Part shown: one piece after another, positions 5,651 to 51,084 of the stretch
Layout: every line of letters starts with the position of its first letter
Position numbering within the stretch: position 1 is the stretch's first letter
Assembly: GCA_039545335.1 (NCBI GenBank)
Contig: BCIN01000010.1
Coordinates: 62,001 to 126,000 of the forward strand
Reading direction: 5' to 3'
Origin: Kondoa subrosea
Lineage: Eukaryota
Length of the DNA stretch: 64,000 nucleotides
Notes under the pieces: generated by a model
Seen by the model: the letters and a program-made list of their open reading frames with translations, nothing else
The model's database searches: none
What the model was told of the DNA's origin: nothing
Translations under genes and position numbers: made by a program

Positions 5651-8600
5651 CTACTTCTTTGCCCTTGCTGCTTTGATCAATGGCTTTAAACTTGTCAATG
5701 GCTCTGCAAGCTTGAAGAAACGATGCTGCCGTGTGCTTGTTCAACAACTGCATTTCAAAGTTCAAGAATAGACTCACATGCAAAAGCTGAGCAGCATCTG
5801 GACGTTGGGCGACATCGACCGAAAGACACACAGCCAAGAAATCTTTGAAGGTTGACGAAAGCTTCTCAGGCTCTTGAATAGTTGGTGTCCCATGCGTAGC
5901 GATCAAGAATAGAGCTCGAAGTGGGTTCTCGTTCTGTGAAAGCAAGTCAGCAGAGTTCTTTCGCATTGTTTGACATGGCGTACGAGATAAGGCGGTTCTC
6001 CTGTACAGCCAAGTTAGTTTAATTTGCATCGGATGACAGGCAAAGCCGACCTTCGACCATTTCGATGCACATGACTGAGCAAATCGTCAGCCTTGCCTCG
6101 AAGAGTGTCATTTAACTTACTGCCAAGCGACCAAATGTCCTGAACACAAGTTTGAGATCCATGTGACAAGTATTGAAGGTATTACTTACAACTTTAGATC
6201 CGTATTCTTTGCGTCCAACCACCTCAGGCGCCATCCTGAATCTAATTTAGATGATGCAAGGCCAAGCACTAATCGACGTACCAGTATGGTGTACCGACCA
6301 TCGTCGTCCGCTTTGATTGAGCGTCATTAATCTGGGCGCAGAAACCAAAATCGGCTGCTCAAACCTATCAGGTGATTTCGACTGGTACGAATCGAGACAT
6401 ACTGAGTTTGATGTCTCCATTCAGACTCAGCAGCACATTGTCAGACTTGATGTCTCGATGTATCACGCCATGTTCATGCAAGTGCAGCAGACCTTCCGCA
6501 ACCTCTTTAGCGACGGCTGAGATTTGCCCTTCAGACATCAGATTCGCGGTAACAACATCGGTTCTGGAAAAGTATCAGATGCACTGCTTCTTTCGGATTG
6601 ACTATAGACTCACAGACTACCGCCTTCCATATACTCCATGACGACCCAAAGATCGGCTTTGACCAAGAAAGAATCAATGAAGTTGACCACATTCTTGTGT
6701 TTTGCTTCTTTCATCACCAAAATTTCGTTGATGATGAGGTCCTGCTCAGGCATTGAGCTGATCTGTCTTGAGTCTGGTACTAGACAGCCTACCTTCTTCG
6801 GCTGATCCTCGAGCTTCATCTGTTTGATAGCTACAGATAAATTGGTTCCTACCTGATAAGCAGTATAGACACCACCAGATGCTCTTTATGAGGTCATTCA
6901 GCTTAAACAATGCAAATACAAATAGTTAAACTCACCCTTGACCAATCTTGACGAGACTGCGATAAAGCTTGGTCGGATCGGCATCAGTGCAAATGAGCTT
7001 CAGTTTCTCGATCACTTCGGCATCTTTCATCTTTGGAACTTTAGCTTTTCTGGTAATCGGTGCGGAAGCTCCAGCTGCAGGTTTGGATGATGATGATGAT
7101 TCGTCATGCTGTGTACGACTCGTCGACGGAACAAGAGCAGCTTTATTGCCTGACGACGAAGCAGACCGACCCAATTCACGTTGGGCTGCAGAGCTACTTG
7201 GTGCACGAGATAGCTTCTCTTTCTGAGGAACAGGCGGCGGGCTTTGAGCGCGGAAGGGAGGTTGAGCAGGCGCTTGAATACGAGGACCGTCAAGCGAGGA
7301 ATTGGTCGGTGCCCAAGCTGGACCATTAGGGTCATAAGAAGGTGATCTTCGTCCGCTTGATGATTGACTAGGAGGAGGAGGTGCAGGTCGAGGTGGTGCC
7401 CAGCGATCTTGCTGCGGCTCTTCTGGTCCACCAAACTTGGCCCAGACTGAGTCATCGGCTGCACCAGGCCTTGACGATTCTTTCTTTGTAGCATCCTATA
7501 AGCCTCCTTATGAGTAAGATGAACAAGCTCGAAGTCGCATTAAATTACCTGATAGAAGGCAACGATATCTACTACAGCTTGTGGATGAGAGGCCTGCTCT
7601 TGAGTTGTAATACCAGAATCCGAAAGCATTTGTTGCCATTGTTTAGGAAGACCCTAAAAGGCAAAGTCAGCCTATAATGCGCCAGGATTGATGTACACGC
7701 ACTGAATATTCGCCCGTATCAGCATTGAAGCCAACATGTGTTAGATGAACAGGGTCATATGGAGTACTGATATCCATCTTCTTTTGAGCGGAAAGAAGAT
7801 CTACCCACTCCTGCGATCAGAATACAATCCGGCACATCAAGTCTCCAAACACACCAGTCATACCTCCCAGTAAAGAACCCCAAACACCTTTGATACTGCT
7901 ATTTCTCGACTCGTTGGTTTTCCTTCTCGTAGTAGAAGGTCTTCGACTTGAACTCCCACTACTACTTCCTTCAGCTTGATCAGGCGCCGGATCGCTTGTC
8001 CTTTCGTTACTCCCATAAGATTGATAAGTAGCCGCACCGCTCGGATTGGGTAAGTAAGATTCTGAAGCTCTTCTACTTGAGTAAGGATGTGCTTGATCTG
8101 ATGAATCCATTGGCATGCCATCATAGGCCGCATAAGAAGCAGCAGCAGCTGTAGCAGGATCATTCAGAAGCGAAAGAGGTTGATTAGGTGAAGGAGGAGG
8201 TAGTTGAGGGGGATAAGCTCGACTGGCGGAAGGTGGTGGAGCGGAAGTTGAACTCTTTCGAATTTTCTTGCTTCCCGATATTGATGAGGAAGAGTAGTTT
8301 TGAGGTGCGTAAGCTGCGTCCAAGCCAGTTGGTGAAGGTACTTCATCCTGAACTAGATCCCAGGCTCCTCCTAAACCAGGCTCTTTCTGTAGAGCCATCA
8401 AGTTCTGAGCAGATGTGCTTGTACCAACACCCCATGTGGCAGGCGAAGGAGGATTGCTGGGACGACGTGTGGTCAATTTGCTGGAAGAAGGCGAAGTTGG
8501 ACTAGAGATGTTTGCAGAGGAGTTACCGGGACTAAAAGGCGGTCGAGATCCAGCAATATAAGAGCTTCGTTGAGGTTTGAGACCACCATTCGATATACTT

Positions 8601-9415
8601 CTGCGTTTGCTTGAATTGGACATTGGCGCGCCGGCCTGGATTTGAGGTAAAACGAAATCTGAATTGCCATTAGTCTGCAGCGAGAAGTAGGAGCTTGACG
8701 AAGCTGGTATTGGACCTGATGGCGGCGGAGGAGGCGCTGGTCTTTGAGGCATCAGATTGCTGCTATAGCCTTGGGAAGGGGAAGTAGTATTAGCCCTAAA
8801 TTGACTAGAAGAAGTTGTTGGCGGTGAATAGTCGGAAGTTGAAGTTACTAAACCATTGGCTTGACGATCAGGACTTGTTGGATTAGAGAAAGAAGTGTAG
8901 GCTGCATTATAATCCCTTTCTTCATGTCTTGGTGGCGATGTGGGTGGACTCCTGACACTGCCATACTGCTTTGATAAACGATTTGTTCGACCAATTGGTT
9001 GAGCGCCTGTTGCGAGGAACAAGCGTGTTGGTGGCATTTGAGGATAAGGTGAGAGATGCATGGTAGAATGTGGGGATCGCAGAACGGGTTCACGAGCAGG
9101 CCGTAGTTGTGTTTCAGATAGAGTGGATCGAAGCGGACGTTGTTGCGGCGGTGATATATAAGTCGTTGGCACGGGGAAAGCATAAGTTGAATTAGGTGTT
9201 GATGCATTGGAGTTGGGAACGTCAATAGAGCAGAATGATTCGTCAGAGTCGTTTCGATGGAAATTTGGCCGAGAAGCAAAGGGGTGTTTCAGAGCGTCGG
9301 GGAAATGCAGTAATGTCAGGCGTTTGTGATTATGTCGAGTTAGATCAGTTGAAGCACGACGTTTGAAGAAGGAATGACGATTTGAATCAGGTGAATTAGG
9401 TACCGAGATTGCCAT
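5651..9415 (-). CDS. STE20: p21-activated kinase Ste20 (CRIB domain + Ser/Thr kinase)
   Basis: CRIB motif [29 protein letters not shown]. Kinase motifs [42 protein letters not shown]-terminal G-beta-binding motif TSLKPLI. No PH domain seen, so Ste20 rather than Cla4. Confidence 0.92.
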
Positions 9416-10114
9416 ATTGAATAGTATTAAGTCGTATTAAGGTGTGAAAGTATTATGTTGACACCAGATTGAAAATATATAAGAAAGATGAGGAGCAAAA
9501 TCAATTAGTTCGTTGTTCGTTGCATAAGGGTAGCATTCTAAAGTGACGAAAGCAAGATCTGCCGCAACAAGACAGGAGCTCGCCGTTTAGTCTATCGCCA
9601 GGCGATGCATTGGTGAAACGTTCTTCGAAGTCTAGCAGACAGGAGGCCAGCTACCAGAGCCATTTGACTGATACAATGACGTATGATGAGTAGAGCAGAT
9701 AGCGGAAGCAGAGATAGCAAGGGAAGAATATGCAACGACACTGACCTGTAAAGCTAGATTGGTGTCGGATGATAGGCTTGCTATTGCTGGAACCAGAGGA
9801 AGTCATCTTTCAGTCAAGCTCTTGCGGTGTCGTCGTCTACCAAGCTTGCATTCCCTTGGATATGCCTTGCAATTAATGCGAACGCAAGCAAATAAGCTTC
9901 GACCGCCCTCTGAGGCAATTCAGACAGGAGTCAATGGTATACGCTGATTCAGAAAATCACAGGCAGGGTATTTCTTTCGTTCAAAGATAGAGTGTTCGTC
10001 ACAAGTCAAGTGTTGAACAAAAAAACACATGCATTCGCGACTTTCACCAACTTGGGATGCAATCATACGCGCCACTAATACAGCAGACCACAGCACTCGA
10101 TCGCCTTCCATTCC

Positions 10115-11764: not shown

Positions 11765-13289
11765 ACTCAGTTCCCTCACGCTTGGACTTGACGAGGATGT
11801 CATCTGGAGAAGGGAGCTTGCGCACCTGTCTTGCACGAATAGTCCGCTCTCACTTCACTTCTCCGCATTATAATCTCGCACTCACATAGGTAATGCAGAG
11901 CGGCTGAATAGCATAGCAAATGAGATCATGTATCGTGATCTGATTTATGATGAAGATCTGGACAACGATCTGTTGCGCAGGAGCATTAGAAGGAATCCCT
12001 CCTTGGGCAAACTGGTGAAGTCATGTCGCCTAATTATGGAACTCCGGGAAGATGTGGAAGATTGCCAAGACTTTACAATGGGACAAGCACTCGACAGAGC
12101 AACGGTTGCAACCAGAGTTTTCGGAACAATTCTTAGGGAACAGCGAGAAGACCTGAGCTCGAAAGTCCGTGTGCTCATGCTGTTCCCCAACTTAAGAACA
12201 TTGGACGTTCATTTGAAGACACCCAAGCTTCATAGCCGATATCGTCTTTCCCCTGAACACTTTCCTTATCTACGTCCCGAGTTGAAAACGTTGCTACACT
12301 TGCCATTCTGTTCTACACTGGAGCAAGTCATCTTCAGTACCGACTTATCATTCCCTTCTATGGATGCTCATCCTCTGGACTGCTATCGCCCGATAGGCGA
12401 CTGGATATTTTCCTTCCCTGCGTTGACCAGCTTAGATTTACGCAATGTACCAGTATCTCTTGGATCCATGGTCAAGTCTCCCTATATCAAAGAGTTCAGG
12501 GTCGAGCATACACTTCAATTTCAACATCAGCGTAATCCACCTCTGATAATTGGACCTGCAAATATCCATACTGTAACTCATTTGACACTTAGATGTAGCA
12601 AAATTGCCGAGGACATCGGCCCTCTCCATAGATATCTGCGATCTTTTCCGGATCAACCACTACAGAAGCTCGAATACCTAAAATTGACAGTCTGGTTTGA
12701 TAATGACAGCGCATCAGACTTGCATAATCTATCCACAATGGTCCCTAATGTCAAGCATCTCACGTTCAAGCTGCGAACATGGAGTCTGATTCTTCTCGAA
12801 GAGACACCCGAAGACGGTCCTATAGCCATTCTGCTAGATCACCTCAATTTACCACATTTGACCCATTTGGTGGTCAAGTGTGACTTCTGGGCAAACAAAG
12901 AAGCACAAGGTTCTCCCATTTCTGCGCTCCTACCACTCTTCGATCCCCGCCGTTACCCGGCGCTTCAACACGCTGTAATCGATTGTCTTCCGAATGAAAA
13001 TTGGCTGCCATCTGCATCTGTAGACCTTTTAGAACGTTATCCCAATCCCCAACGCCAAAATTTAGAAATCAGGAAGGAAAGACCTCATTGGATGCGCCCT
13101 CGGTCAATTCCTTATGGAACCAAAGAGATAGAAGCTATGTGGAAATGGGATGACTTGATATCCGATTCGGTCAGAGCGATTCAAGAAGGTCACTCCTACC
13201 GACGGGCAGGGCTGAAGGTACAGTTCAGGTTTAAATACGAACATCCTGGACGTAAACAATATGTGATCAAAGATGTATGGGGATATTGA
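11739..13289 (+). CDS. F-box / RNI-like LRR protein (paralog A1)
   Basis: Exon 1 MLCLPDELILSSLTL...ELAHLSCTN, intron 11842-11898, then (K)RLNSIANEIMYRDL in frame with the 453-aa ORF. LRR-like repeats FPNLRTLDV, FPALTSLDL, LPHLTHLVV. Confidence 0.75.
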
Positions 13290-13447: not shown

Positions 13448-15085
13448 ATGCTATCATTGTGAGCTCTGAACACTGTTGAAATGACAGTCCATCTGACAAA
13501 TTGTTCTCAGACCAAATGAAAAGATTTTGGACGTGCTCGAGGAAGTAGCTGCATTGGCCCGTAGACGTGCTAATCTTGTGAATCTGGGTCGGACGTGCAG
13601 TGCGTACAATATATCTTTACCTGTTTGTGACCTTAAATCCTGACGTTAGTCGATCAGAACGCTTGCACTACCTGTCGAATCCGATCCTCTATCGCACTCT
13701 GGATGTAAAGGATCTCAATAATGCAAGCCTTCGACAGAATTTGAGCAAAGACGGTGCTAGACTAGCTTGTTTCGTAAGAAGCTTTGGATGGGACATCCGA
13801 TTTCGACCTGCTAGAAGATCAGTACTGGCTGCAAGTTTTATAAGTAAGGGAGGAAGGAAGGTTTATGGGCGACCGATGGACGAAGCGCTTCAAGCTCATG
13901 TCGAGCACAACGACATGATTATGGATACTTTAGCTCACTTCAGCAATCTTGGTACGAATTGTTCTGTACTGGCATACATACAGCTTATCGTTCTCTACAG
14001 CTCACTTACGCATTTACGTTGGTGAAACTCTGAGCAGATACGGTTTCACTGCAGAGGAAGAAATTCAACTGTGTCCCAACATAGGCAACAGATCACCTTT
14101 TCCGTGTATCAGTACTTTAACAAGTGCCAATCTCGAATTTGACGACGACCTCTACACGTATAATGGATTTCAGCAACTCGTGACTTGGCTCTTTTCGCTA
14201 CCCAAATTACAAATCCTAAATCTGTCGAGGACTCCAACCATCCTTTCCTGTCCTGTCACATCGAGTTGTCTTCAGAAGCTTTCCTACGAAACAATCTACG
14301 ATGGCGAGTTCATAAATGGACTCTATTCTGTCAACTCGCCTGCAGCGTGGGGACGTGTATTAGGTCCAGCTGATCTCCCGCGTCTTACCCATCTAGAATT
14401 GAATGGCAACTATCTCATGTCGAAACTTCTGGCTATCTTTCCATCAAGGCCTTTGCTTCACCTTCGACATCTGGAGATTAACGAGATCGAAGAACTTGGA
14501 GAGAGAAAAGATTGGCGCAAATTATTCGAAGCTATGCCAAATTGTCAAGAGCTGTGGATCCATATTTATCCCCGGCAACCTTCTACATATCAAGATTATC
14601 TCGACATCATCCTGCAGGAGCTAAATATGCCTCAATTACGCTACCTGAAGATCACTGCTGGCCGTACCCATACGTTTGATCCTCAACTACTACCGCTGTA
14701 TCTCAATCAACCCCGTTTTTCGGCTCTGCAAGGTATCAAGCTCTCTTTTGGTGCATCGGGCGATTTCGAAACGACACGCGCTCGATTGCTAGCCAAGTTT
14801 CCTGACGACAAGGTCTGGCTCCAAAGCAGAAAGGCTCAATCACCACCTTGGGCGGACGACACTCCATATGGCACATATGGAGGATGGCCAAAGTCAGCAG
14901 AAGAATGGATACTGCAATGGAATTGGCATGATCTAGTACCTCTGTTGGTCCGAGAATTGCGAGATATTCAATTCGCACGAAATGGCTTGCAAGTGAGAAT
15001 AGAGTTTCATAAGGTAGCGTATGGGCCAGTTGGAGAGCAAGTGTTGTGGCCCAGTTGTGAGAACGCAATTCCGGAACCAGCTTGA
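13448..15085 (+). CDS. F-box / RNI-like LRR protein (paralog A2)
   Basis: Spliced MLSL|PNEKILDVL...LVNLGRTC|KRLHYLSNPILYRTL. LRR-like LPKLQILNL, LPRLTHLEL, MPQLRYLKI. Shares PYGT..WxWxDL..GLxV with A1. Confidence 0.75.
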
Positions 15086-18473: not shown

Positions 18474-20405
18474 ATGAAGGCTACATGTCGACGCTGTGTG
18501 CAATTGGCTAAGGCAGCAAGTCAAGTGGAGAAACGAAGCTATTGGTGGTCCACAACTCAAACAGCGACAGCGCAAGACGTCGTCGCTCCGATTGAACAGC
18601 ATGATTTAGTGATCGTGGGCGGAGGCATCGCTGGTCTGACTCTAGCATCTGCTCTAGGTGTGTGCAAGAGACTCTGAAACGTGCTATATCTGTGCTGATC
18701 CGTGTCAACCCAAGGCGCCAATCCTGCAATTTCGAAAGATCACAAAATTACTTTGCTGGAAGCAAGCAATCTGGATGATCACAGACACTGGAGACCTGAT
18801 CCTACAGTCTACTCGAATAGAGTTAGCTCAATTACAGCTCAATCGAAAGCTTTGCTAGAAGGTCAGCTTGCTTCAAATAAGCTCTATGCGAAGCTAATTC
18901 CTTCCTTCCAGATATTGGCGTATGGCAACATGTGAATCAAGATCGTGTCAGGGGTATAGAGGAGATGAGGGTTGGTTGAGCCGTTGACAAGTGTACAGAC
19001 TTCTGATATTTGGATGACAGATCTGGGATGGCCTTACGGGTGCTAGACTCGAGTTCAATATCAATGACATCCATCCTCGAGCAGCCGTAACATTAAATGA
19101 CGACCTTCTGGAAGAAGATGCTCTGCAGAAGATCGAAAGACCGGCAATGGCTTGGTTGACGGAGAATCTCAATCTTCAATCCGCCTTAATGAAGCATCTA
19201 GATAATCTTTCCGATAGAACAGAACTCATATCAAAAGCCAAAGTGGAGAAAATAGAAGCTGAAGCGATAGATCAAGGAGGTTGGCCGATAGTGACATTGA
19301 ACAACGGACGAAGATTGCGAGCAAGGTTGTTGATAGGCGCAGATGGCTTCAATTCCCCTGTCCGCAAGTATGCAAATATTGAATCTTTTGGTTGGCCTTA
19401 CGATACGCATGGTGTCGTTGCTACTTTGGATCTAGCGCCATCGTCACACAACTATACTGCTTTCCAACGCTTTCTACCAACAGGACCCATTGCTTTCTTA
19501 CCGGTACGTCATCTGCGATTCGTTTTGTCTATGCTATAGCTGATTCATGCGCGCAGCTTACTGACACGAAAGCATCTTTGGTCTGGTCTACTAAACCTGA
19601 AATTGCAAGCGCGATCAAGAGACTCGACCATACTGTCTTGACAGAGCTAGTCAACGCAGCTTTCCGTCTTCCTCGGCATTCGATGAACCTAATAGAAGGT
19701 CTCATGACATGTAAACCTGAAGCTTCTCAAGCTGAAATCCTCCAAGTCATTCGCTGGAGATCTTCTCCTGCTACTACGATCTCCTTACCTTCCGAAAATG
19801 GCTATGACATACCTCCACTAGTAAAAGGAATTCAACCTCGAAGCGTCGCTTCTTTCCCACTACGTTTCTCTCACGCAATGTCTTACATCGGTCAATCTCC
19901 GCCAGGTATCGAATTACCGAATCGTACTGTCCTTATTGGTGACGCGGCACATACTATGCACCCTTTAGCAGGTCAAGGTCTCAACACCGGTTTATCCGAC
20001 GTTCGATCTTTGAGGGATTCATTAGAAGTAGCAGCTAAAGAAGGAGCCGATTTAGGTCACTTGACTTCTTTAAGAGCTTACCCTAAAGAAAGATATTTCG
20101 AAAATCACAAAATGCTCAGCGCGACGGATAAGTTGCACAAATTGTTCGAAAGGCAAGAAAGTCCGATTGTTTGGTTGAGAAGTTCAGGAATGGAATTGAT
20201 TAATGAATGGACTGGGTTAAAGAATCTGTTCATGCGTCAAGCTGGAGCAAAAGAGGTTGGCAAAAGTGGACAATCACTCAGAGATCAATTATGGACTGGA
20301 GGATTATTGAGTGCTATGAAAGCAAGTACAACAGTAACGGAAGCGAGCAAGATGGCTGTTGGTCTAATTAAGAGCAAGATCACGGAGAGAAGAGTCAAGG
20401 AGTAA
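18474..20405 (+). CDS. COQ6: Ubiquinone biosynthesis monooxygenase Coq6
   Basis: DLVIVGGGIAGL, SNRVSSIT, LLIGADGFNSPVR, AFQRFLPTGPIAFLP, VASFPLR, LIGDAAHTMHPLAGQGLNTG; basic N-terminal presequence. Confidence 0.93.
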
Positions 20406-20512: not shown

Positions 20513-22426
20513 TCAAAACACTTTGTGACCGCCTTCGAATTTCGATGATGGAGGCGAAGCGAATTGCGAAGGCGAAAGATCGTTCGTGGTTCCCCCAGGA
20601 GACATATCACCTCCAGGCGAAGTAGGAGATTGTCGATCAATGTGTTTGAAAGCTCTGGACTGGAAAGAGAAGTTGCCGAAAGTTGAAGGCATAGTTGAGT
20701 TGTCTGGGACGGCGAAAGGAGGAGAATCTTGAATTGGTGAAGCGCTTCGAACAGGTTTCTCCTTCAAGGCAACAGCAGAAGCACGACGGCGAATCGACCA
20801 ACCACTGAAAGCAGTAAGAGAAGGACTGGATTCAGCTACTTTGCGTTCTGGTGTATTGGCCAATGATTGTGCTCTGTTGTAAACTGCTGCTCTGGGAGGA
20901 GTGACTTCTTCTTTGGCTGGCGAAGGAGTAGCTGAGAATGCAGGTAGTCTCCACATGCTCGCTCTTCGAGCGGGTTGTGTTGGTTCTTCATACTCATCTG
21001 CGGTGTCATCAGTCGGCAGAGGAGGGAGTTTGAGCGCGGAAGATTGAGTTGGTGAGTCTTTAGGCAGAGCGATGTATTCCTTCAAGGCTGATAAACAAGT
21101 ATCGCTAGCGAGCTTCGCTTCCTGAGCTTCTGCCAGTTTGGCTTGAGCAGCAGCAAGTTGAGCTTTGAGAAGGAGAACTTCTCCATGTTCAACACCTTGC
21201 GAGGCGTGGATTTCGGGCATAGAACCTCGCCCGATAGGTCTTCCATTGAGCTTTGCGCCGTAGTCGACCGATGCGCGGAAACTCGATCGCATGCTGGAAC
21301 GAGCTGGATTGTAATCATTGCCCTCTTCGTCGATACTGACGACAGCCAAACTAGGTTTGCGAGAATGACGGCGAGCTTGTATAGAAGAAGGAGGAGGAGC
21401 TTCGAAGGGATCTTCGTTGGCATTATGCTTGTCTGCTGAATTGAGAAGCATTGTCTTGAGGCCAGTCCGACCTTCTTCGTCAACTGTAGTAGTGGAGCTG
21501 AGACGAGAACGTTGAGTAAGACCGATGACCGAAGCTCTTCTGTTGACTGGAGTGACGGGATCAACTGCGACACCTTCTAAACCCAAACCAACACTCGCTT
21601 CTGAACTTCGTCTAGTAGAATTGAAGTCGACAGTGTTACGTCTCATAGCATCTAGACCAAGAGCAGATCCAGCCAAGGAAGCGCGTCGAATGTCAGAGGC
21701 CAGCCTTTGGTTTTCGACAGCATTCGTAACCGAAACTCTTCGACCAAGGTTGACGCTGGCTCGACGAGAATCCGGACCGAAAGAGGGAGTGAAAGTCAAG
21801 GAGCTACGACGAGATTCGTTGCTTGATTTCTTGGCTGCTTCCTCTTGTAAACGCATAATGGCTCTTCGACTTTCCTCCATCTTTTGCCTTAAAGTTGCAA
21901 CTTTCTCAGCTTCTGCCAATTTTTCCGCTTCTGCTGCTTCCCTCTTTTTACGTTCCAATTCAACTTCATTTTCCAAACATCCAGCTTTATCCCTTAAAAT
22001 AGTCAATTCATCCGTAACGTCTGAAGTAGCTGCTTTGAGATTGGCATGCGAGCAACGTAATTCGCCTAATTGAGATAAGAGTTGATCTTGAACAGCAGCT
22101 TGAGCAGCTAATTGACTCTTGAACAGTTCGACTACTGCTTGCATAGCTGAATCCTTATCGAAAGCTAGAGCTGATAATCCAAGATTGAGAGTGCTGAGAG
22201 CATTGTTACTTGTAGCAGGAGGAGGTAGAGGTGTAATTGGTTTGAAAGGTAGAGAATCGGTTGAAGCGGAGGGATGTAGAACAGGAGAAGAAGGTTCGGA
22301 AAGGGATTTCTCTGTTGCTGGTGGTGAAGCTGGCATAGAACCGTTTTGACTTTGTACCAGAGCACGTAGTTTAGCGTTCTCTTCAGCCAGAGAGAGTAGT
22401 AGAGTGGGATCTTGGGTATTGATCAT
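20513..22426 (-). CDS. Intronless coiled-coil / disordered protein, unknown function
   Basis: Long uninterrupted ORF (about 637 aa from ATG 22426) with coiled-coil segments and Ser/Pro-rich linkers. Confidence 0.8.
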   Translation of the reverse strand: MINTQDPTLLLSLAEENAKLRALVQSQNGSMPASPPATEKSLSEPSSPVLHPSASTDSLPFKPITPLPPPATSNNALSTLNLGLSALAFDKDSAMQAVVELFKSQLAAQAAVQDQLLSQLGELRCSHANLKAATSDVTDELTILRDKAGCLENEVELERKKREAAEAEKLAEAEKVATLRQKMEESRRAIMRLQEEAAKKSSNESRRSSLTFTPSFGPDSRRASVNLGRRVSVTNAVENQRLASDIRRASLAGSALGLDAMRRNTVDFNSTRRSSEASVGLGLEGVAVDPVTPVNRRASVIGLTQRSRLSSTTTVDEEGRTGLKTMLLNSADKHNANEDPFEAPPPSSIQARRHSRKPSLAVVSIDEEGNDYNPARSSMRSSFRASVDYGAKLNGRPIGRGSMPEIHASQGVEHGEVLLLKAQLAAAQAKLAEAQEAKLASDTCLSALKEYIALPKDSPTQSSALKLPPLPTDDTADEYEEPTQPARRASMWRLPAFSATPSPAKEEVTPPRAAVYNRAQSLANTPERKVAESSPSLTAFSGWSIRRRASAVALKEKPVRSASPIQDSPPFAVPDNSTMPSTFGNFSFQSRAFKHIDRQSPTSPGGDMSPGGTTNDLSPSQFASPPSSKFEGGHKVF

Positions 22427-22972
22427 ATTCTGCGCAAAGTAGGTGAGCGAGAGTGCGGGGTAAGATTTACAGGCTGCGACGTACATGAATGGATGAATGT
22501 AGTGATTATTGAGAGCTATCAAAGCTTGTGGGTTTCTGTGGCACCAGAAAGGGAACAGCCGATCAGGAGACTGTGCCAATGTTGTTGGATCCGTCTAGGA
22601 TTTCGAATTGAACGACGGAATTTGTGATCAAGATAACGATGTGGTCGTTCTGTGGCACCTCAAGAGCCAGCTAGAGATGCGAGACAGATGAATGGAGGAG
22701 AGATAGAAAGGCTTGAAAAGGCAAAATGGCTTGAGTGAGGCTTGTCGGCGTATGGAATGGAGGAGTAAGAGAGAAAAGAGGGGGCTGACGAATCAAGATA
22801 ACAGCGGTGATCTCTAAGTTCCAGAAGCGCTGAAAGCATAATTGTCAATATTTCCATTTCCGTCGGTTTTTGGCAAAAGATGAACGAATTCATTATGACA
22901 TTATACTCGCTACAATGTTTCAGCCTCAAGCCGTACTAAGACTATATACACACGGTCACCAGAAGAATGCCC

Positions 22973-28131: not shown

Positions 28132-30620
28132 ATGTCATCGTCTCTGGAACAAGGTCATGTGCGCCGTTCTGGGCTGGCTCCCATAGAAGATGAGGACAAG
28201 CCAAAGTACTTCCTTACCAAGCAAGAGGTTAGTCTCTAGATTACATAACCATTCTTTGCTCAAGGGCACATTTCTTGGGACTTAGTTCAAAGTTTTGGCA
28301 ATTGCGTCAACTGGATTCTTTGTGGATGCATATGATTTGTGTTAGTACTTCTCCTCATTCAAATGGTATACTCGCTGATTCATGTTGGGCTACAGTCATC
28401 ATCAATATGATCGTCCCGTGAGCCAACTTCAAATTTCAATATTGGGCTACGGAGACTTATATATGATGTCGCCAGAATCCTGAGCGTCGTTTACACTGGT
28501 CGCTTAAGTGGAAGTATCAAAGAGATTCCTTTGAGCGGTGGTCTGCTCAAGGCGGGAACGAATATCGGTAAGTTGTAATTCGTAGTTTGCTTACCTATGG
28601 CGGTAAACTTATCCATCACATAGGCTGTGTCATTGGACAGATCGCCTTTGGTTTCGTGCGTTCGAACAGAGAAGGAGCAAGATTTAGAAATGCTGACAAC
28701 CAAATTCTTAGGCTGGAGACTACTTTGGTCGAGGCAAAGTCTACGGCAAAGAATTGGCTGTTACGATCCTTGGAACAATCTTGTTCATCTCTTGCCCTAG
28801 TCCTGGATCATTGTATGGCTTTGTACAAGTAATTATGCGCAAGTGCTGATTTCCTTGTTCAGGTCGATCAATGGCGTCTTCACCTACTTGACTTGCTTCC
28901 GTATTCTGATGGGTATTGGTATCGGAGGCGACTACCCAAACTCTTCCGGAACTGTTTCTGACCGCGCAAACATCAAGCGCCGAGGAATCATGTTGGCATT
29001 CATCTTCAGTTTTCAAGGATGGGGAAGTTTCCTCGGATCCGTCCTTGCCATCGTCCTGCTCGAAATCTACAAAAGCAGCGTCTTCACCAATGGAAACGTC
29101 AGCCATTTGAACAGTTTATGGCGTTTACTTGCTGGTCTTATCATTGCACCGGCTTTCGTCACCATGATCTACCGTTTCCGTCTTGGTTCTTCCGTCAGAG
29201 AAAAGAACGTTCAAGCTATTCGAGCTGACCCAACACTCATCGAGAAGGAGAAAGACTTTTACTCTAAAGATGGTTCGGAATCACCTAAAGAGAAAGCCGC
29301 CCTTGCCGATGATGTCCCCTCGGAATCTACTGGTGTACCTGCCACTGCTGATACATGGGAAACACTTCACTATTTCTCTGAGTGGAGACATCTCAAATTG
29401 TTGTTGGGAACTGCTTTGTCTTGGTTTTTGGTGGACAGTGAGTAGCGTGTCGGTCTCTCATAGTATAAGATGCTCATCCAATCTTTCCAGTCACCTTCTA
29501 TGGCGAGTATTATAGCTTTGTCAAATGGTTTCATTCCTAACCTCAGCTCTTCCTTAGGTATCAACTTGAACCAGAGCATCGTCATTCAAAGCGTTGGATT
29601 GGCGGGTAGCAAAGACCCTTGGCAATATCTGTTCGACTTAGCGAAAGCAAACATCATGTAGGTCTTACAAATGTTGAGATATCGCCAGTTGTTGATTCAG
29701 GTGTCTTTTGATTGTAGCATTGCCGCCGCTGGATTCTTACCGGGGTTTGTGCTTTCTCTGCACCTCAGTATCGCCTCTGACTTTGCAGCAGATACTACCT
29801 CACCATGATCTTCATCGAAAAACTCGGCAGAAAGAACATTCAGTTATTGGGTTTCACTATGAACGCTCTGTTCTTGGGTATCCTTGCAGGCGATTTCATG
29901 TCTCTGAAAACAAAGCCAGCTGCGTTCATTGTGTGCTTCGCATTCTTGCAGTATGTCCATTCTTCTCAGCATGTTGACTTCAGAAACTGATAATGATCGC
30001 AGACTCTTCTTCAACTTGTGAGTCGGTGATATGCGACGCGATCAATAACTAATTCCGTCTATCTCCTTCTTAGTGGTGCCAATGGTAGGTCACTACCGCT
30101 TTTCATTCTGTACTTTACTAAAATCTGGGTCCTACAGCAACGACATTCGTGAGCTTAGACATAATGCAGCCATATCTGATGCTGACGAATTGATCAGATC
30201 GTTCCTGCTGAAATCTTCCCAACCCGGGTTCGTGGTGGTGCTCAGTCAGTCCTTTCGATGTACTGTTGAAAATCCCGTCCTGACTTTCTTTCAGTGGTTT
30301 TTCTGCTGCGTGCGGCAAGTGCGGAGCTATCCTCAGTGCTCTTGGGTTCTCTGAATGGCAAAAGCAAATCGGGTCAGTTAATCTCCTATTTCAATGTCTC
30401 CTCCGCTCACGTTGGAGATGAAGCACAAGCAACGTATTGTGGATCTTGTAAGTACCTTTTGCTCTGTGTGTCAGCGAAGCTCATATGCTTTTCTAGCTTT
30501 GCCATCTCTTTCCTCGGTATCGGCTCTACACTTCTGATCGAGGACACCACCGGGCGCGATGCTGATGCTATCGATATGCGGGAGCGACAAGAAAAGGCTG
30601 CCATGGCCTCGTATAAGTGA
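28132..30620 (+). CDS. MFS phosphate / organophosphate permease (Pho84-family, divergent copy)
   Basis: GFFVDAYDL, DYFGRGKVYGKEL, RILMGIGIGGDYP, RRGIMLAFIFSFQGWG, LLGTALSWFLVD, IEKLGRKNIQLLGF, PAEIFPTR; many introns. Confidence 0.85.
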
Positions 30621-41686: not shown

Positions 41687-43134
41687 TTACACTCTTTGAT
41701 CTGTTTCTGCTTCCGGAGGTGTACCTACTGGTCGCAGAGCTGTATCCTCTTGCTTTCCGCCCTTATCCATCTGCGCGGAGAAGGGCAGATTCGTTTCGAT
41801 CTTGGCAGATGTTGGAGGTGGACCCTGTCAAGTAAATGATTAGCTGTTCGTCACAACATGCACGAATGAGCACATACGAAAGGATCATCATCGTTCACTT
41901 CCACTTTCGCTTTCTTTGCAGCTCGTTTGTCTTCTAGTAGCGCTTCTGCTTCAGCTTGTCTCTTCTTATACCTATCTCAAACTTCAGCATCCGTAAAAGA
42001 AGAGCTCGAACACATGAGTACTCACAAAGCAGAATTAGGATCCTTTTCAGGGTTCTTGCAGTATTTCAACCTCTTATCCACATCCCTAACTCTTTCAATA
42101 TTAACACCTTGTTTCCCCTTTTCCAACAAAGGTTTGATCTCTTTAATCAACTCCCTCATATCTTGCATATTCATTCCACCTTCTTGAGTATTCAAAACCG
42201 CTTTAACGGACATCCAACTTTCAGCTAAACTTTCTTCAACAGTATGAAAAGCAGCTAAAGCTATTTGACTTGGTAAGTATAAGAATTCCAAATCTGGGTT
42301 CAATCTTGAATTTTTCAGAATCGGATCCACTTTCTTCATTAATCCTTCCAATTCTTCAGTTGTTGGTGGAAGAGGTAAAGCGTTTTGCAAGTCTAGGAAA
42401 ATACCATAAGCTGCTAAGAAGGAATGATGGACTTTGTATTGAAAGCGTAAGGATTGGGAAACTAGGAATTCGAGGGATAAGACTGCAGATGGCAAGGTGC
42501 CTTTTATCTTGGAAGCAAATTGAGCGATAGTGATGACTTGATTTTCTGTTTTCGTAGCCAGAAACAGACATGTGAGCCTGAATATATCATTTCAGCTTGC
42601 GAATACTAGATGAAAGCAAGGGTAAGACGTACATGACATTCTTCGGATGATAATCCATGCAGGTGTTTCGCAAGTAGAAACGCTTGAGATAAGTCATTGC
42701 AGTCGAAGCAACAGCATCATTGAAACCAAAAGCTTTAGCCAATTGTGGGATCTTGGTTAGGTAGAAAGTAACGAGATCCAGTTCATCTTGAACTGTCAAG
42801 TATTGGATCTCGGTAGGAAGAGATTGTTCTGTTGCAGTGGATGATTCCGCAGTAGTCTAAATACGACGAAGTATAGGCAAGAAGACAGAGAAACACCGAG
42901 ATGATCATATGAGACCTACTCGCTCTTCTTCGACTTTGGTTCGCACTCGATCTACAGCTGATTGATTCAGCTCATTTCGTAGCTGCTCGAGTTGTTGAGC
43001 CGAATATCGCCAGTTCCTGCGACAGAAGAGCGACGAATCAGCATATTGTGTTGTTCTCCAGGCTCCAAGATGACCAACCTGAATTGACTGGATTGTTCGA
43101 ACAGCGATATTGGCTGCTGCTGAGCTACAGTCAT
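41687..43134 (-). CDS. CCL1: Cyclin H (TFIIH/CAK cyclin, Ccl1/Mcs2)
   Basis: LFEQSSQF|RNWRY, YLTVQDELDLV, TAMTYLKRFYLRN..MDYHPKNVM, FLATKTEN, LEFLVSQSLRF, FLYLPSQIALAA. Confidence 0.9.
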
Positions 43135-43270
43135 CTGACTTGTTTTGATCCAGCGAGAATGCCGTGTGGCTCCAAGATCAGCGAGTACGAGCTGGAACAA
43201 GGTTGGAGAGAAACCACCGAGAACGAAGAGAGTAGATTGACCAGCATCCTCTCAAGAACACTGTATAGCA

Positions 43271-44579
43271 ATGGCAGCACCTCAGATTCACGAATTATCC
43301 TTGCAGCCGCTCACGGCGCACTCGTTCAATGGAGACAGATCATTAGGTCAGTATACCTCATCATACGGTCCATCTACTGGTCAAGCTGACGTCCGAGCAC
43401 AGTCGCCGTGTGCGAGAATACTAATGAAGCTCAAATCTACAACACTTCTACTTGGAAACTCGAGCAAACTTTGGCCGAGCATGACAAGCTCATCACTTCA
43501 ATCGACTTTGCACCTCAATCCAACAGAATAGTCACCTGCTCACAAGATCGTAACGCTTACGTCTGGAACCCAACTCAAGATGGAACTTGGAAACCTACTT
43601 TGGTCTTGTTGCGCATCAACCGTTCTGCGACTTTCGTTCGTTGGTCACCTAGCGAAACTAAATTCGCTGTTGCAAGCGGTGCGAGAACTATTGCGGTCTG
43701 CAATTATGACGAAGAGAGTGATTGGTGGGTTGCGAAACATATCAAGAAACCTTTGAGAAGTACCGTCTTGAGTCTGGATTGGCATCCGAATGGTGTACTT
43801 TTGGCTGCTGGTAGCGCGGATATGAAAGCAAGGGTCTTCTCTGCTTTCCTCAAGGGTGATGAGAAGTGAGTCGGAATACGAAAGTGTTAGCTTCCTGCTA
43901 ATCTCTTTCATCTCCAATTCACAGACCCGCTCCATCTGTTTGGGGAACTAAGCTACCATTCAATACTGTCTGTGGGGAATACTCTTCTCCTGCCGGTGGA
44001 TGGGTTCATGCTGTAGCCTTCTCTCCTTCAGGTGATTGTCTCGCTTTCGCAGGTCAGTCCAATCTATTTCGACCGCTCAACCACAACTGACCTATGATAA
44101 AAGCTCACGACTCGACTATCACTCTGGTCTACCCTTCTGGACCAGAAGCTGAACCCCAAGCACTCTACACTATCAGATCCTCTTCTTTGCCATTCATGAC
44201 CCTCACTTTCTTAACCGAATCGACCCTCATCGCAGCAGGTCACGATTGCCAACCTATTCTCTTCTCTGGTTCTGTAGATCAAGGTTGGGAACAAACTCGT
44301 TCACTAGATGATTCGAAATCTTCTACTGCTGGAACATCCAAAGTTGGTGTAGGAAGACTAAACAACGAAGCTTTCAATAGATTCAAAGCTGCCGATTCTA
44401 GAGGAGCTCCTCCTGTACCTGGTGCTAAACCAGGTAGTTTGAGTGGGAAAGAAAAGGAAACGATTCATCAGAATACTATCACTAGCGTTAGAGCTTATGA
44501 GGGACAAAGCGGGAATGTCAAGAAAGTCAGCACTAGTGGTGTGGATGGTCGCTTGGTTATTTGGACCGTGGGCCAGTGA
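43271..44579 (+). CDS. ARC40: Arp2/3 complex WD40 subunit ARPC1
   Basis: [71 protein letters not shown]. Confidence 0.95.
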
Positions 44580-44909: not shown

Positions 44910-46735
44910 TCATGCTTGACCATTATTGTTTCTTGGATCCTGCGAGAAGTATTGACATATGCTTGTTTGCTACACTCGCATGAGGGCAGTGTGGGACAAA
45001 GCAGCAGAGTAACGGGACTCACCTTGAGGGGTTCCGCCCGTCTCAGAGCTGTCTGCTTGTGTGCCCGAGATTGCTGGTCCTTCTTGGGTTTCCACTTCTC
45101 TTGTTTGCTAATATGATTTGACAGGTACTTGAGAATCAGAATTTGCTGTTTCGATAGTCAACAGCGCTCTGCGAGTTATGGCCAGTGACATACATCGGGC
45201 GTAACAGGATCAAAGGGATCCGCAATACCAGTGATCATCAAGCGAAGTCCTTCTTTGCGACATAGATGCTGCACTTCGAAGACCAAGCAACGCTTGAGAT
45301 CACAGGTTTGATAGTCATCAGCCAGATACAGCCAGACCCGGATTGCATGGCGAATAATCTCAGGTTGAATATTCTCTTCCTGGTTAAAGTCGCCAAACAA
45401 TTCGAAAAAGGTAGGTGCTAAGAAGTTGCTGCCCAAGCTCGAGCTCTTGACGAAATCGCAAAGATCATGGATTAGGTCAGTATTATTATACATGTAGAAG
45501 TCTTCTTCTAATTCGTTCCAAGACTCCCAACGAACGTCCAGGCTGATTTCTAGATCTTGCCAAAGTGGCAGCTGTCCGCACCTTTTCGCTTCAATCCATC
45601 TATGCAGCCCAGCCAATTGTAGAGTTGACTGCGAGTCGCATTCGACGTATATCTTCTCTATACCAGGAGGAAGGTGCATAGAGAATATCTTTGTACTCTG
45701 GTATTCGTTCGGCTGAAACAGATTCAATTCTCTTAACGACGCGCAATTATGCAAGGGAAGGAGATATTGGTCCAGATAATACGTGGATAGCCGTAAGCGT
45801 TGAACGGAGGTGCAGAGCAGATCGAAAGCCTTTGGAAAATCTTGCGTAGTATCAATTGCACACACATCGTCTATATTGACAGTCGTAATATGTTCAAATT
45901 TTGCTTTGTCCATTGCCAAAATAGCGGGCCATTTGCCGACATATCGCTCGTTCACATAAAAATTCATGCAATCCTCCTTCTCTTCTGTGTGTCGCGCATC
46001 GACATGACCACAAGAATCGCCATGTATTTCCAATTCCGTCACAAGCTGTCCATCCCGGAGTAGTGAGGTCTCATACAGTCCTCCGGTGTCTCGTATGATG
46101 TACTCTATGACTCGTTGCTCCAGGTCGTCTTTGAGTCTATCAAGGCTTAATCAAGCAAGCCTTGATAATACCGTACTTCAGAATCACGAAGCTTGACCCA
46201 CATGTCGAGAGTGAAAAACGACAGACGAGGAAGAGGACTAGACCGAATTACGCCGTGTAGAGCTTTAATCCTGTGACAGAGAGTTGAATACGGCTGGTGA
46301 GCGTCGAGGATAAGAACATGAAGATCTTCTGGGCAGACTTCAGCTGCAATCTTGTAAGGTGAGTGTATGTCTCTGAGTACGAGAGTACGATCGCGGATCC
46401 GTTTGACTACAGAGAGCATTTCTGAATTCACCAAAGCGAGTTGCGAGAGTTGCGCAAAATAGTCGTGAGACAGATCGGCTAAAGGCACAGAGAGCTCAGG
46501 AGGCATGTATTCGAGCGCTGGGGAAGGTTAAGTCTAGACTCCGTTTTATATGTTTGGCTCGACTCACTTTCTCTGTCAAAATGCCTAAGCGACCGTGGTT
46601 TGCGCGCAGCTGCCAAAGCTATGATATACTGCCGTAGCTCTGAAGCGGCGTTTCAGCTGTGCCTTCAGACAAAGAGCTTCAAAAGTATTGACCTGCGGGT
46701 AATTGAGGATACAACAGGAACGCGTCAACAGCCAT
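44910..46735 (-). CDS. F-box-like / LRR-like protein (paralog B1) with C-terminal PIP-like motif
   Basis: Spliced N-terminus MAVDAFLLYPQLPA|ELRQYIIALA; ORFs 46147-46506 and 45176-46042. Two further phase-0 introns give QILILKYL... and QTSICQYFSQDPRNNNGQA*. Confidence 0.65.
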
Positions 46736-47285
46736 CGCTGTGAGCTTCCTTCCTGTAGTCGACGATGTACACTGCCGCGTGCTGCCAGGCAGGCGAGCCA
46801 CGGTCCACGGACTCTTCAAATAATATTCGACGCGGTTGTTTATGCTCAAGAGGATCAATTCGCAGCTAGAACTACGCTGGCAGGCAGAATTGATTGACGA
46901 GTATCTGGAAAATGGCACAATTTTCGCAAATGCCTTTAGGTAAGGTAAGCTCTAGCATAAGATTACGTAAGCATGCGTAGACGAGGAACTGGTATGATCA
47001 GAGCCGCAGCAAGGAGCCTTTCTTCGTCGTGCGGGAGCGAGTCAGGCTTGGAGCAGACCCAGAGAAGTAGCCGATGCCCTGTGTCGGTCTCCTGTCTTTT
47101 GCTCCGCCCATACAATTCGTCAACCGAAGGTCTGTTGCTGCAACTAGGCTCAGGTTGTGCAATACGAGATAGGCTCAACATGTGACCGGACACTTTCGCT
47201 GATTTAGCTTCCCTTGGAATGATAGAGGAATCCCGGTTAAATCGTAGATTGCACTGCATTCTGCGAGGGAAGATCTTCGTGAACT

Positions 47286-48624
47286 TCACTTGCTGATTTG
47301 GCTCGGCCGGCAGCACGGCGAGTGGATTCGCTCGTAGTAATCAGTGAGTCGGGTTTGCTGTTTACCATGCAATTAGCATCGCGCGCACAGACAAAAGAGT
47401 ATTCACCAACATTGGCTTCGACAGGCAGAACGAAGGGATTGCTGATGCCATGAATCTGAAGCGATACGCCGCTTATTTGCAGCCGACGTCGTAGGTAGAA
47501 GAGGAACCAGGTCTTGAATTCTTCCAGGCCCGTTGCCTCAGCGCTTGCATACCAATCCCATACAGCGTTCTCGCAGTCCGTTTCAACAGCATCAAAAAAT
47601 GCGAGCAGAGATTCCGAAGGGAATCCAACCAGATTTGCATATGTCCTGGCTTCGTCCATCCGGTCTTTGACTTCCCATTCAAATAGATTGTCATCGTCGA
47701 CGTGATCCTGCCGCCAATCCTTGCTCAAATGTATATCCAGCTTCGACCAACTTTGCGCCTTGCCTTGCTTCTTTTCCCAGACCCAGTCCAGAACTGCCAC
47801 TAGTCTCAATACAGACAACTCTTGCATTATCAAGCGTACGCTGGTTAATGATTTGGGCAGTTCATCAACTCCGATACAAGTATATCGGCTGCTGGGTAGG
47901 AAGATTATCAATTGCTGAAGTTCGGTGCATTTTCTGAGAGAGATGCGTTCATCTAGATCCGCATGACACAATTCGAGACGGAGTCAACGGGCTGAAGTTG
48001 CAACCAGAGAAATGATGCCTTGAGTATAATCATTATGCGCATCACAGCTGAGACCTCGAATATCCAAATCGGTCACAGCTGTCAGTATGTCAGGTTTAAT
48101 CAGCTCGATATCTCCCGATAAGGTTGTTTAATGGCTGCGACACAAGCGGCCAGGTCTTCGATGTTGTCTTCTATCGAGAAATGTAACTCGAGCAAGTGTT
48201 GCAGATGCCTCTTAACACGGACTGAATCTTGTGGTTCATGCGGGAAAGCGATGAGATCTGATTCTATCTGAAGTTTTATGACATGCATTGTCTGTGCGAA
48301 CTAACAAGCCTACCTGTATCATCGGCCCATTCGCGATACCAAAATTGATCAACCACAGGATAGAATTCCGGATGTATGGTGCTGAAATACAGGAGTCGCT
48401 TGTATTGAACGTCCGGCTGTATTAGAGTATACAGCATTGTAGGTGTCGAGTGCGCTGCATGACTTCGATGTAAGGTTGGGAAATTTGACCTGGAAAACAG
48501 TTGGCTCACGAGACAAGTAGTCAAAGTCGCGTATACCAGCGTCGACAGCAAAGAATAGGATGAGTTCGCGAATTTCCAAAGGCAGATTTGGAAAATAAGG
48601 AAACGATTTGCACAGAGATGCCAT
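47286..48624 (-). pseudogene. F-box-like protein (paralog B2), apparently disrupted
   Basis: N-terminus FPYFPNLPLEIRELILFFA; aligns with B1. In-frame TGA at 47984-47986 and a frame discontinuity near 48110-48140. Last exon QTRLTDYYERIHSPCCRPSQISK*. Confidence 0.55.
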
Positions 48625-48793
48625 GCCGCGTTCGCTCATGCGAAGCTAGAACTATTTGTGCGGTGACTATCCTTGAGGTCTGGTACAGATTCTACGACCT
48701 ATTCGCCGTGCAAAGGCAAAACTTCACGAATATTGAAATCCGGGGTGAGAAAGCAACAGCGACGCGAAGCTCATCCTTTGGCTATACAGAAGC

Positions 48794-51084
48794 ATGAGTG
48801 ACATCCAGATCAAAGGAACATCGCATTCTGTCAAGTCTGGCTTGTATATTGGCGGAGAATGGACGCAAGGCAGGTCATCGTTTTAAGAACAGCTCGGATG
48901 CTAAGCCTACAGGATTTAGGACATGGAGACAAGCTGGAGTCTATAAATCCAGCTACTGAAGAGATAATTGCGACTGTACAAACTGCTAGTGAGGACGATA
49001 TAAATCGAGCGGTTTCTGTTGCCCGAGAAGCTTTCGAGAATACTGTGAGTTCCCCGTAGCACAAGTGAAAGAGATCTTATACTCTTATCAGTGGGGCACA
49101 AATACTACTGGAACAGAACGAGGCAGACTGCTCTTTGCATTCGCAGACGTGAGACCCAAATATAGCTTCTCACGAATATGCCCTCTGATCTGCTGAAAAC
49201 AGGCTGTAGAGAAACATACAGATGTAAGCTCATTGCACCGCTCTCTCGAAAAGGTCATTTGAAGCATCTCAGGAATTGGGTCTCATCGAATCAGTGGATA
49301 CCGGCAAGCCCATATCTTGGTGCAAGGCAGACGTTGGAGATGCAGTAACTTGCTTGCGATACTTTGCAGGCGCTGCGGACAAGATTCAAGGCGTCAGCAT
49401 CGAGATTGAAGATGGTCAGAAGAGCGCTACAGTGCGTAAAGAGCCTGTGGGCGTAGTTGCACAAATAGTACCTTGGAAGTGAGCGTTTACCTCTCGTCAC
49501 TCGATTGTGCGCTGATAGTGTCGTCCAAGCTATCCTATCGTGGTATGGGTCTCTTGTCCTTGACTCGCCAGCTTCTCTCAGCTTCATTCAGATGTGGTCC
49601 TGGAAAGTCGCGCCAGCACTCGCTGCAGGTTGTGCAATTATCTTTAAACCAGCGTGAGTGTCCGTCATCCTCATTTCTTACGGGCTCATACTTTGGCTGA
49701 AGAGAAAATACACCTCTTTCTACGCTCAAACTGGCCGAGATCTACGACACAATAGGTTTCCCCAAGTATGCCATCGCCCTCTTGCTAATGACTTCATCCG
49801 CTGATTTGTGTTTATTGCAACAGAGGCTCTTTCAATGTCCTCAACGGCACTGGTCAAGCCGTAGGCAAACTTCTCAGCGAGCATATGGATATTGACAAGA
49901 TCGCTTTCACCGGATCGACTGTCGTCGGAAGACAGATCGCTGTGGCTGCTGCTCAATCCAACCTGAAAAGATGTACTCTCGAACTAGGTATGGCAATCAG
50001 TGCACGTCATCAAAGATGATGGGCTGATTCTAAATTCTGTCAGGCGGCAAATCGCCAAATGTCGTCTTTGAAAGCGCCAACCTCAAAGAAGCAGCTAAAT
50101 GGGTGAGCTGAATTAGCTCAGATTGTCTCATCCTGGCTAAATTCTCGTTGATTAGGCTGCGTTTGGTGTCTTCGAGAATATGGTAAGCTTATCTTCCAGC
50201 CTCACTTGTTCACCAATTCACACCGGACATGTCTTCTTAAGGGACAATCATGCACTGCCGGTTCGAGGGTCTTGGTCCAGAATAGCGTTTACGACGAATT
50301 CCTCAAGCTTTTCATAGAAGCTGCCAACGCTTGCAAAGTCGGAGACCCTTTGGATACAGATACTTTTACTGGAGCACTGGTCTCAAAAGTCCAATTCGAT
50401 AAAGTTTTAGGATACATTGAGAAAGGCAAACAGCAAGGTGCTAAAGTCGTTGCTGGAGGAGAACGAGTTGGATCAAAGGGCTTCTTTGTTCGAGTGAGTT
50501 TGCCGTTGTCGTTGTATGCAGTGACTTTCGCTGAACGTCCGCTGGCAAAATAGCCTACTATTCTGACGGAGGTTTCTAAAGGTAGATCGCCTGCTTCATG
50601 TTGAGCTCTCGTAAGCAAGCTAATTTCGGATACTTTAGACAACATTGTTGGGAAAGAAGAGATCTTTGGTCCTGTAGCTTGTTGTATCAGATTCGATACG
50701 GAAGAGGAAGCCATCCAGATCGCCAATGATACGAATGTGCGCCAGTCTGAATTTCTTCTTCCCGAGTCTCGCTTACAAGTTTTGTGATAGTATGGTCTGG
50801 CAGCAGGTATCCACACATCAGACTGGAGACAGATGCAACGCGTCTCGCGCAAAGTCAAAGCTGGTACTATATGGCAAAATCAATACGTAGCTGCAGATAG
50901 TCGTATACCTTTTGGTGGATTCAAGTCGTCTGGTTGGGGTAGAGAACTCGGACTACAAGGACTGGACGCATACCTTGAGACGAAAGTGAGGCGTTTCGCT
51001 ATATCAAACGAAATTAGCTGACGGTTCTGCAAGGCTATTCATTCGTACTATGGTGATGATCTTGATTGGCCAATACAGCTTTGA
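48794..51084 (+). CDS. NAD-dependent aldehyde dehydrogenase (ALDH1/2-type)
   Basis: LYIGGEW, SINPATEE, LRYFAGAADKIQG, EPVGVVAQIVPW, KIAFTGST, TLEL|GGKSP, catalytic GQSCTAGSR, EEIFGPV, PFGGFKSSGWGRELG. Confidence 0.95.

Follow-up and report, generated by a model that had tools for sequence, protein, structure and literature searches.

PIP-like motifs at predicted phase-0 exon starts in a diverged tandem gene pair of Kondoa subrosea

Do two neighboring genes of Kondoa subrosea end in tails that dock on the clamp protein PCNA? The genes, here called B1 (44910-46735) and B2 (47237-48639), lie on the minus strand of a 64-kb stretch of DNA (NCBI GenBank assembly GCA_039545335.1, contig BCIN01000010.1, positions 62,001 to 126,000). 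This whole stretch is referred to as the window, and all coordinates are given relative to its first letter. A sequence-only reading had described the two genes as an F-box-like pair of paralogs, each ending in a PCNA-interacting peptide (PIP) box carried by an exon of its own. We found PIP-like strings in both tails, and each of them opens a predicted phase-0 exon, an arrangement that is far from chance.

The three strings named in the sequence-only reading were all located on the minus strand. QTSICQYF (44946-44969) opens the terminal exon of B1, QILILKYL (45122-45145) opens the exon before it, and QTRLTDYY (47334-47357) opens the candidate terminal exon of B2, so that the motif is present in two of the two known members. 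We tested them against the consensus Q-x-x-[ILM]-x-x-[FYW]-[FYW], which QTSICQYF and QTRLTDYY pass in its strict form and QILILKYL in a relaxed form only. The strings also fit the PIP consensus QXXhXXaa, as given in the available text of PMC7225939. The strict pattern Qxx[ILM]xx[FY][FY] occurs six times among the ~128,000 six-frame codon positions of the 64 kb, once with an internal stop, and QTSICQYF and QTRLTDYY are two of the six. Dinucleotide shuffles contained at least one motif in 34/20000 cases for the B1 tail, and in 30/20000 (192 nt) and 63/20000 (320 nt) cases for the B2 tail. Sampling the window itself in segments of 320 nt gave a motif in 37/3184, a count that includes the segments overlapping the two tail motifs.

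The splice context of the strings is the strongest single result of the analysis. Relaxed motif strings without a stop number 14 in the whole window over six frames. Three of them directly follow an AG that has a GTNNGT start 40-75 nt upstream, and all three are in the tails of B1 and B2, compared to none of the other 11. The same combination of AG and upstream GTNNGT is found at 918 of 127740 positions (0.7%). The putative donors are GTATGT, 48 nt from QILILKYL, GTGAGT, 53 nt from QTSICQYF, and GTTGGT, 53 nt from QTRLTDYY.

The B1 model was built from window coordinates and predicts six exons (46735-46693, 46639-46568, 46517-46202, 46136-45194, 45145-45023 and 44969-44910, minus strand) that form one open frame of 518 codons. 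Predicted introns 1 to 5 measure 53, 50, 65, 48 and 53 nt and have the donors GTCAAT, GTGAGT, GTGGGT, GTATGT and GTGAGT. Intron 1 interrupts the N-terminal motif, with YPQLPA closing exon 1 and ELRQYI continuing it on exon 2. Support for this intron comes from the alignment of the spliced B1 N-terminus to the contiguous FPNLPLEIRELI region of B2 (48559-48585; tblastn E 0.009). Both genes begin with F/YPxLPxE(L/I)RxxI, as had been claimed, uninterrupted in B2 and split by an intron in B1. Intron 3 is required for joining the two largest B1 open reading frames (ORFs). A perfect 10-nt inverted repeat, noticed by eye, occupies part of its 65 nt (arms 46166-46157 and 46148-46139, 8-nt loop, minus strand). 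As modeled, B1 looks intact.

In the B1 tail, intron 4 (45193-45146, phase 0, GTATGT...AAACAG) begins six codons past the string GIADPF (45212-45229). It is followed by exon 5 (45023-45145), which has 123 nt or 41 codons, many of them for Lys, Arg and Gln, and a phase-0 intron on either side. Intron 5 (45022-44970, phase 0, GTGAGT...GTGTAG) then leads into terminal exon 6 (44910-44969), with 19 codons and the stop. Skipping exon 5, by joining 45193 straight to 44969 across a 224-nt intron, would likewise preserve the frame. The predicted tail has an isoelectric point of 10.2 and a grand average of hydropathy of -1.33, which fits a disordered docking tail. Retention of the introns had been said to remove the motifs, and this is what the sequence predicts: reading through intron 4 reaches a stop after five codons (VCHWP), and B2 continues in another frame.

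We next consider how the two genes are related. Their C-terminal domains are 22% identical over 204 residues (BLASTP E 1e-09; tblastn 2e-11), a level of similarity that supports the earlier view of B1 and B2 as paralogs and indicates a diverged tandem pair. The conserved domain closes with GIADPF in B1 and with GISNPF (47432-47449, minus strand) in B2. The window has no other GIx[DN]PF string, and the presence of one in each gene agrees with the sequence-only reading. The Trp-rich pattern described for both genes was recovered with one correction: W, K, G, W, L, I, L and W are invariant between B1 and B2, but B2 has V where the pattern opens with L. A third member of the family was not found within the window.

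The B2 model starts with an ATG at 48639 (or 48624) and has its main ORF at 47983-47237. Plausible introns are located at 48509-48455 (GTGAGC, 55 nt) and 48313-48264 (GTAGGC), with a weak third. The resulting three-intron path, in which all donors have G at +5, links the ATG in frame to codon 47987. A candidate terminal intron of phase 0 (47410-47358, GTTGGT...AAACAG, 53 nt) would lead into a candidate terminal exon (47286-47357) of 23 codons plus TGA. Alternatively, B2 could be read through (47237-47410), since 57 open codons follow the candidate donor before the stop at 47239-47237. The contiguous frames that contain the PIP strings are 19 and 28 residues long.

The candidate terminal intron of B2 occupies a position homologous to B1 intron 4. 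In both genes a GTNNGT donor is found at the same phase-0 site, after PVTPD in B1 and after PVEAN in B2, and both acceptors read AAACAG with CAAA directly behind. These phase-0 introns had been placed right after GIx(D/N)PF; the homologous donor sites are indeed there, but they begin 6-7 codons past PF rather than directly behind it. A second near-equivalent pair consists of B1 intron 2 and B2 intron 1, both of phase 1 and separated by two codons once the proteins are aligned.

A DNA repeat as the origin of the common tail motif was rejected. The best local match between the B1 and B2 tails is 10 nt long, has a score that 80/500 and 34/1000 shuffles reached, and is the AAACAG-CAAA acceptor context itself. 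A repeat search returned nothing beyond short two-copy matches. Because the tails are otherwise without DNA similarity, their common features do not stem from a recent DNA repeat. Taking this together with the 22% identity of the domains, we infer that the kept splice signals and motif-defining residues reflect selection.

Two other observations concern the pair as a whole. A 17-nt direct repeat, 88% identical, is found in the 5' regions of both paralogs (46858-46874 and 48638-48654). It abuts the B2 ATG and lies ~125 nt upstream of the B1 ATG at 46735, and it could be an element common to the two promoters or leaders, or else a coincidence. The main ORFs (45194-46136 in B1, 47411-47983 in B2) have a GC content at third codon positions of 0.49-0.52, compared to 0.40 in other long ORFs. 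Their codon usage is atypical for the window, and their synonymous-codon scores are negative in the true frames.

The LPxE[IL] motif resembles the start of an F-box, and the pair had been called F-box-like. Profile searches did not bear this out. The first 91 residues of B2 gave a sole Pfam match, to positions 1-35 of the 94 in 2EXR (PF20150), at an E-value of 6e-4 and a score of 21.3 bits, under the cut-off of 24.8. No F-box family (PF00646 / PF12937) matched the B2 N-terminus at E-values up to 10. This test covered the N-terminus of B2, that of B1 being split by introns. The nearest clusters to B2 in the ESM Atlas were 2EXR at 0.91 (136-144 of 256 features shared) and then DUF7730, mostly from Ascomycota, and clusters annotated as F-box reached only 0.77. 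A sequence search of the PDB with the B2 N-terminus gave 0 matches at E-values up to 10.

The central domain of B1 and B2 matched no Pfam family, including those of leucine-rich repeats (LRRs). In the ESM Atlas, the best matches to the B1 domain were unnamed clusters at 0.91 and 0.90, and an F-box cluster at rank 22 (0.86) is a lead only. AlphaFold2 models of the 324-aa ORF of B1 and of the two-sequence alignment of B1 and B2 had a mean predicted local distance difference test score of 39.0 and 50.9, respectively, a low confidence from which we claim no fold. Foldseek searches of the PDB with these low-confidence models returned nothing at E <= 0.001, and template modeling scores were below 0.3. 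An LRR or F-box/LRR architecture of B1 and B2 is not established.

Searches for relatives came back empty as well. None were found for the B1 324-aa ORF in a word-indexed homolog search, for the B2 248-aa ORF in a phmmer search of 1.84 billion representatives, for B1 or the B1 and B2 alignment among metagenome contigs, or for the profile of both among longer proteins. As a control we used a neighboring ORF without a Pfam family (7817-9436), for which 5.8 billion clusters yielded just two relatives (53% identity). Since the control is itself nearly without relatives, the blank searches with B1 and B2 mainly reflect relatives that are missing from the libraries. Judged by titles and abstract openings, a full-text literature search for '2EXR' apparently returned no paper on this family, and none of these titles and openings describes a PIP-type tail for it.

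We propose that the tandem genes B1 and B2, which are highly diverged, may belong to a branch of the ascomycete 2EXR family that is specific to their lineage. Each protein would consist of a short N-terminal LPxE[IL]R motif and an unclassified domain of ~200-450 residues that closes with GIx(D/N)PF, followed by the conserved phase-0 intron. Past this intron would come one (B2) or two (B1) mini-exons, each opening with Q-x-x-[IL]-x-x-Y-[FYL] and, in B1, sitting in a basic, hydrophilic tail. The motif could act as a PIP-type short linear motif that enters the hydrophobic pocket and the Q-pocket of PCNA, and docking would bring the protein to replicating or repairing DNA. Judged from the sequence, PCNA docking by the tails is the leading mechanism, which we put forward tentatively.

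Several observations weigh against docking. Clamp partners are not usually as fast-evolving and orphan-like as B1 and B2. In B1 the strict motif, on exon 6, is not the positional homolog of the B2 motif, and the exon that is, B1 exon 5, has a relaxed motif only. B2 contains an in-frame TGA, and its terminal donor GTTGGT is weak. According to the available text of PMC7225939, strict PIP strings occur in non-binders too, and PIP-like motifs overlap the Rev1-binding RIR and Mlh1-binding MIP motifs. The remaining points come from a codon log-likelihood score that compares in-frame to off-frame usage and was trained on 14 long window ORFs. The B2 PIP exon (23 codons) scores -9.5, a value as low as which was seen in 0/541 in-frame 23-codon windows of B1 and B2 and in 24/1387 chance-ORF tails. 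The B2 read-through frame (57 open codons) scores +11.2, which is typical of in-frame sequence and was reached by 34/360 chance ORFs. B1 exon 5 (41 codons) scores -5.9, a value as low as which was seen in 2/487 in-frame windows and in 117/649 chance ORFs. B1 exon 6 (19 codons) is neutral at 0.1 and thus uninformative.

The mini-exons may instead be real and their motif selected for another role. It could be read by another hub that recognizes PIP-like motifs, of the Rev1 or Mlh1 type, serve as a degron or localization signal, or fold back on the protein's own domain. The non-random arrangement is equally explained in this way. The overlap of PIP-like motifs with RIR and MIP motifs points in the same direction, as do the relaxed fit of QILILKYL and a family that is lineage-specific and fast-evolving, unlike typical replication factors. 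However, the conserved positions (Q at 1, aliphatic at 4, aromatic at 7 and 8) are exactly those that define a PIP box, and two of the three strings match the strict consensus. We consider such a role about as probable as docking.

A further alternative, which we regard as rather unlikely, is that the tails are not translated as proposed. B1 would then end in VCHWP, B2 would read through to 47237, and the strings would be out-of-frame or 3'-untranslated coincidences, picked up only because the sequence was spliced freely by eye. This is favored by the codon scores of the B2 read-through relative to its PIP frame and of B1 exon 5, and by the weak B2 donor. We take the codon evidence as real, yet give it less weight than the splice context. 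Amino-acid composition, chiefly a low number of GNN codons, determines the score, which is therefore weak for short disordered tails. A score restricted to synonymous codons was uninformative because both main ORFs are negative in their true frames. Coincidence is also difficult to reconcile with the joint rarity of the motifs and with an AG/GTNNGT context in all three tail strings that none of the 11 others has. Moreover, two of the donors (GTATGT and GTGAGT) are canonical, and the tail introns fall within the 48-62 nt that are common among the short (~50 nt) candidate introns of the window. An unsupervised intron harvest of the window was too noisy for a position weight matrix. The B2 read-through tail had no residual homology to any frame downstream of B1 (score reached by 68, 315 and 486 of 500 shuffles). 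Overall, the mini-exons are likely to be real, selected coding exons. In B2 both forms may be in use, or the read-through alone may have been.

B2 contains an in-frame TGA (47986-47984, minus strand); the sequence-only reading had mentioned neither this stop nor the open read-through frame of B2. In the tblastn alignment the TGA lies within sequence homologous to B1, where B2 reads SAR, stop, LRLE and B1 reads SVQRLRLS. The stop is opposite the Arg codon CGC of B1, and the base after it is C. When donors must have G at +5 and introns measure 40-120 nt, no path bypasses the TGA, and a bypass using arbitrary GT donors takes 5-9 introns. Because the TGA is in a region homologous to B1, B2 is disrupted in this assembly. 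It is probably a recently inactivated copy with a single nonsense change, and the TGA may stem from a recent nonsense mutation, from polymorphism among strains or from an error in assembly or sequencing. Downstream of it the frame is open for 248 codons (47983-47237), and any decay would therefore be recent.

Decay of both copies, as remnants of a dispensable and rapidly evolving gene family whose motif is a relic with no function today, is an unlikely reading that overlaps the other alternatives. Besides the TGA, such decay would be consistent with the five introns that B1 requires, two of them with non-consensus donors (GTCAAT and GTGGGT), with the empty homolog searches and with the atypical synonymous codon usage of both main ORFs. 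Yet B1 has an uninterrupted 518-codon frame with introns of 48-65 nt, and splice signals are kept at homologous positions despite only 22% identity.

Exon 5 of B1 measures 123 nt between phase-0 introns, and its inclusion or skipping would therefore leave the frame unbroken. In the most far-reaching reading, 2EXR proteins would be F-box-like substrate receptors, and this branch would be tethered to PCNA via cassette exons with one PIP box each. Inclusion or skipping of exon 5, or intron retention, would then set the number of clamp-docking motifs or remove them, giving splice-tunable recruitment of a ubiquitin-ligase adaptor to replication forks. This reading is very improbable, and both of its parts, the F-box/SCF role and the control by splicing, are speculative and unsupported. 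S-phase control is likewise unsupported: the MluI cell-cycle box ACGCGT occurs five times in the window compared to 7.6 expected, once near the B1 ATG.

Docking by the tails can be compared to known systems. The likeness to 2EXR, an ascomycete family of unknown function, consists of the N-terminal F/YPxLPxE[IL]RxxI motif in B1 and B2; the sub-threshold score of B2 and the lack of any family match for the rest of the protein set them apart. In principle the idea has precedents, since ubiquitin-ligase receptors that dock on PCNA are already known. The F-box helicase FBH1 binds PCNA via a PIP box and APIM and is recruited by PCNA through the classical PIP box, as stated in the available text of PMC3711418. 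In contrast, B1 and B2 lack a helicase domain, and the B2 N-terminus has no F-box match. Cdt2 is a substrate receptor of CRL4 that docks on PCNA by a PIP box at its extreme C-terminus (PMC6312923, available portion), the architecture that had been proposed for B1 and B2. However, Cdt2 is a WD40 DCAF protein conserved across eukaryotes, whereas B1 and B2 are orphan-like and any link to a ligase is speculative.

A resemblance of the TD pair to the high-affinity form in p21 and Cdt1 had also been suggested. In the available text of PMC7225939, the PIP degron is defined by TD before the aromatics and K or R at +4 after the second aromatic. QTRLTDYY does have the TD pair and lacks the basic +4 residue, as had been noted, with H in its place. 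The resemblance does not extend to B1, which has CQ instead of TD and P at +4, and by this definition neither gene encodes a PIP degron. A PCNA-binding module on an isoform-specific terminal exon may have a precedent in UNG1 and UNG2. Each UNG isoform has an N-terminus of its own (PMC6511853), and UNG2 is a PCNA binder (PMC13292882), according to the parts of these papers that were available. The UNG modules differ in being N-terminal, in arising from alternative first exons and promoters and in belonging to a conserved repair enzyme, while those of B1 and B2 are predicted C-terminal mini-exons.

If the tails are translated and bind PCNA, they would provide the first functional handle on the 2EXR family, which is large in ascomycetes. 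They would also represent a fungal, lineage-specific addition to the ligase-type receptors that sit on the clamp, such as Cdt2 and FBH1. Each motif sits exactly at a predicted phase-0 exon start, in one case that of a cassette exon with no effect on the frame, and this design makes the idea directly testable. If the tails are not translated, the locus would simply hold two diverged 2EXR genes, one of them broken.

Finally, we looked at the surroundings of the pair. Pfam matches on long ORFs of the window include SUR7/PalI, questin-oxidase-like, major facilitator superfamily (MFS) transporter, WD40, aldehyde dehydrogenase and dynamin-family GTPase. A multi-exon run of three ORFs (42913-44579, plus strand) converges on the 3' end of B1. 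This gene was taken for a WD40/ARPC1-type from its translated sequence; its last ORF, the one scanned, had no Pfam match. On the other side, an aldehyde dehydrogenase gene (48800-50400, plus strand) diverges from B2, with ~150 bp between the starts. Long ORFs without a Pfam family, of 383-693 codons, are located at 7817-9436, 20513-22594, 11874-13289 and 13934-15085. The first of these is the control with only two relatives, a sign that the lineage may be poorly sampled. Within the first half of the window are a questin-oxidase-like ORF (1113-1949), an FAD-binding monooxygenase ORF (19383-20405) and an MFS transporter ORF (28801-29445), which may be part of a secondary-metabolite gene cluster.

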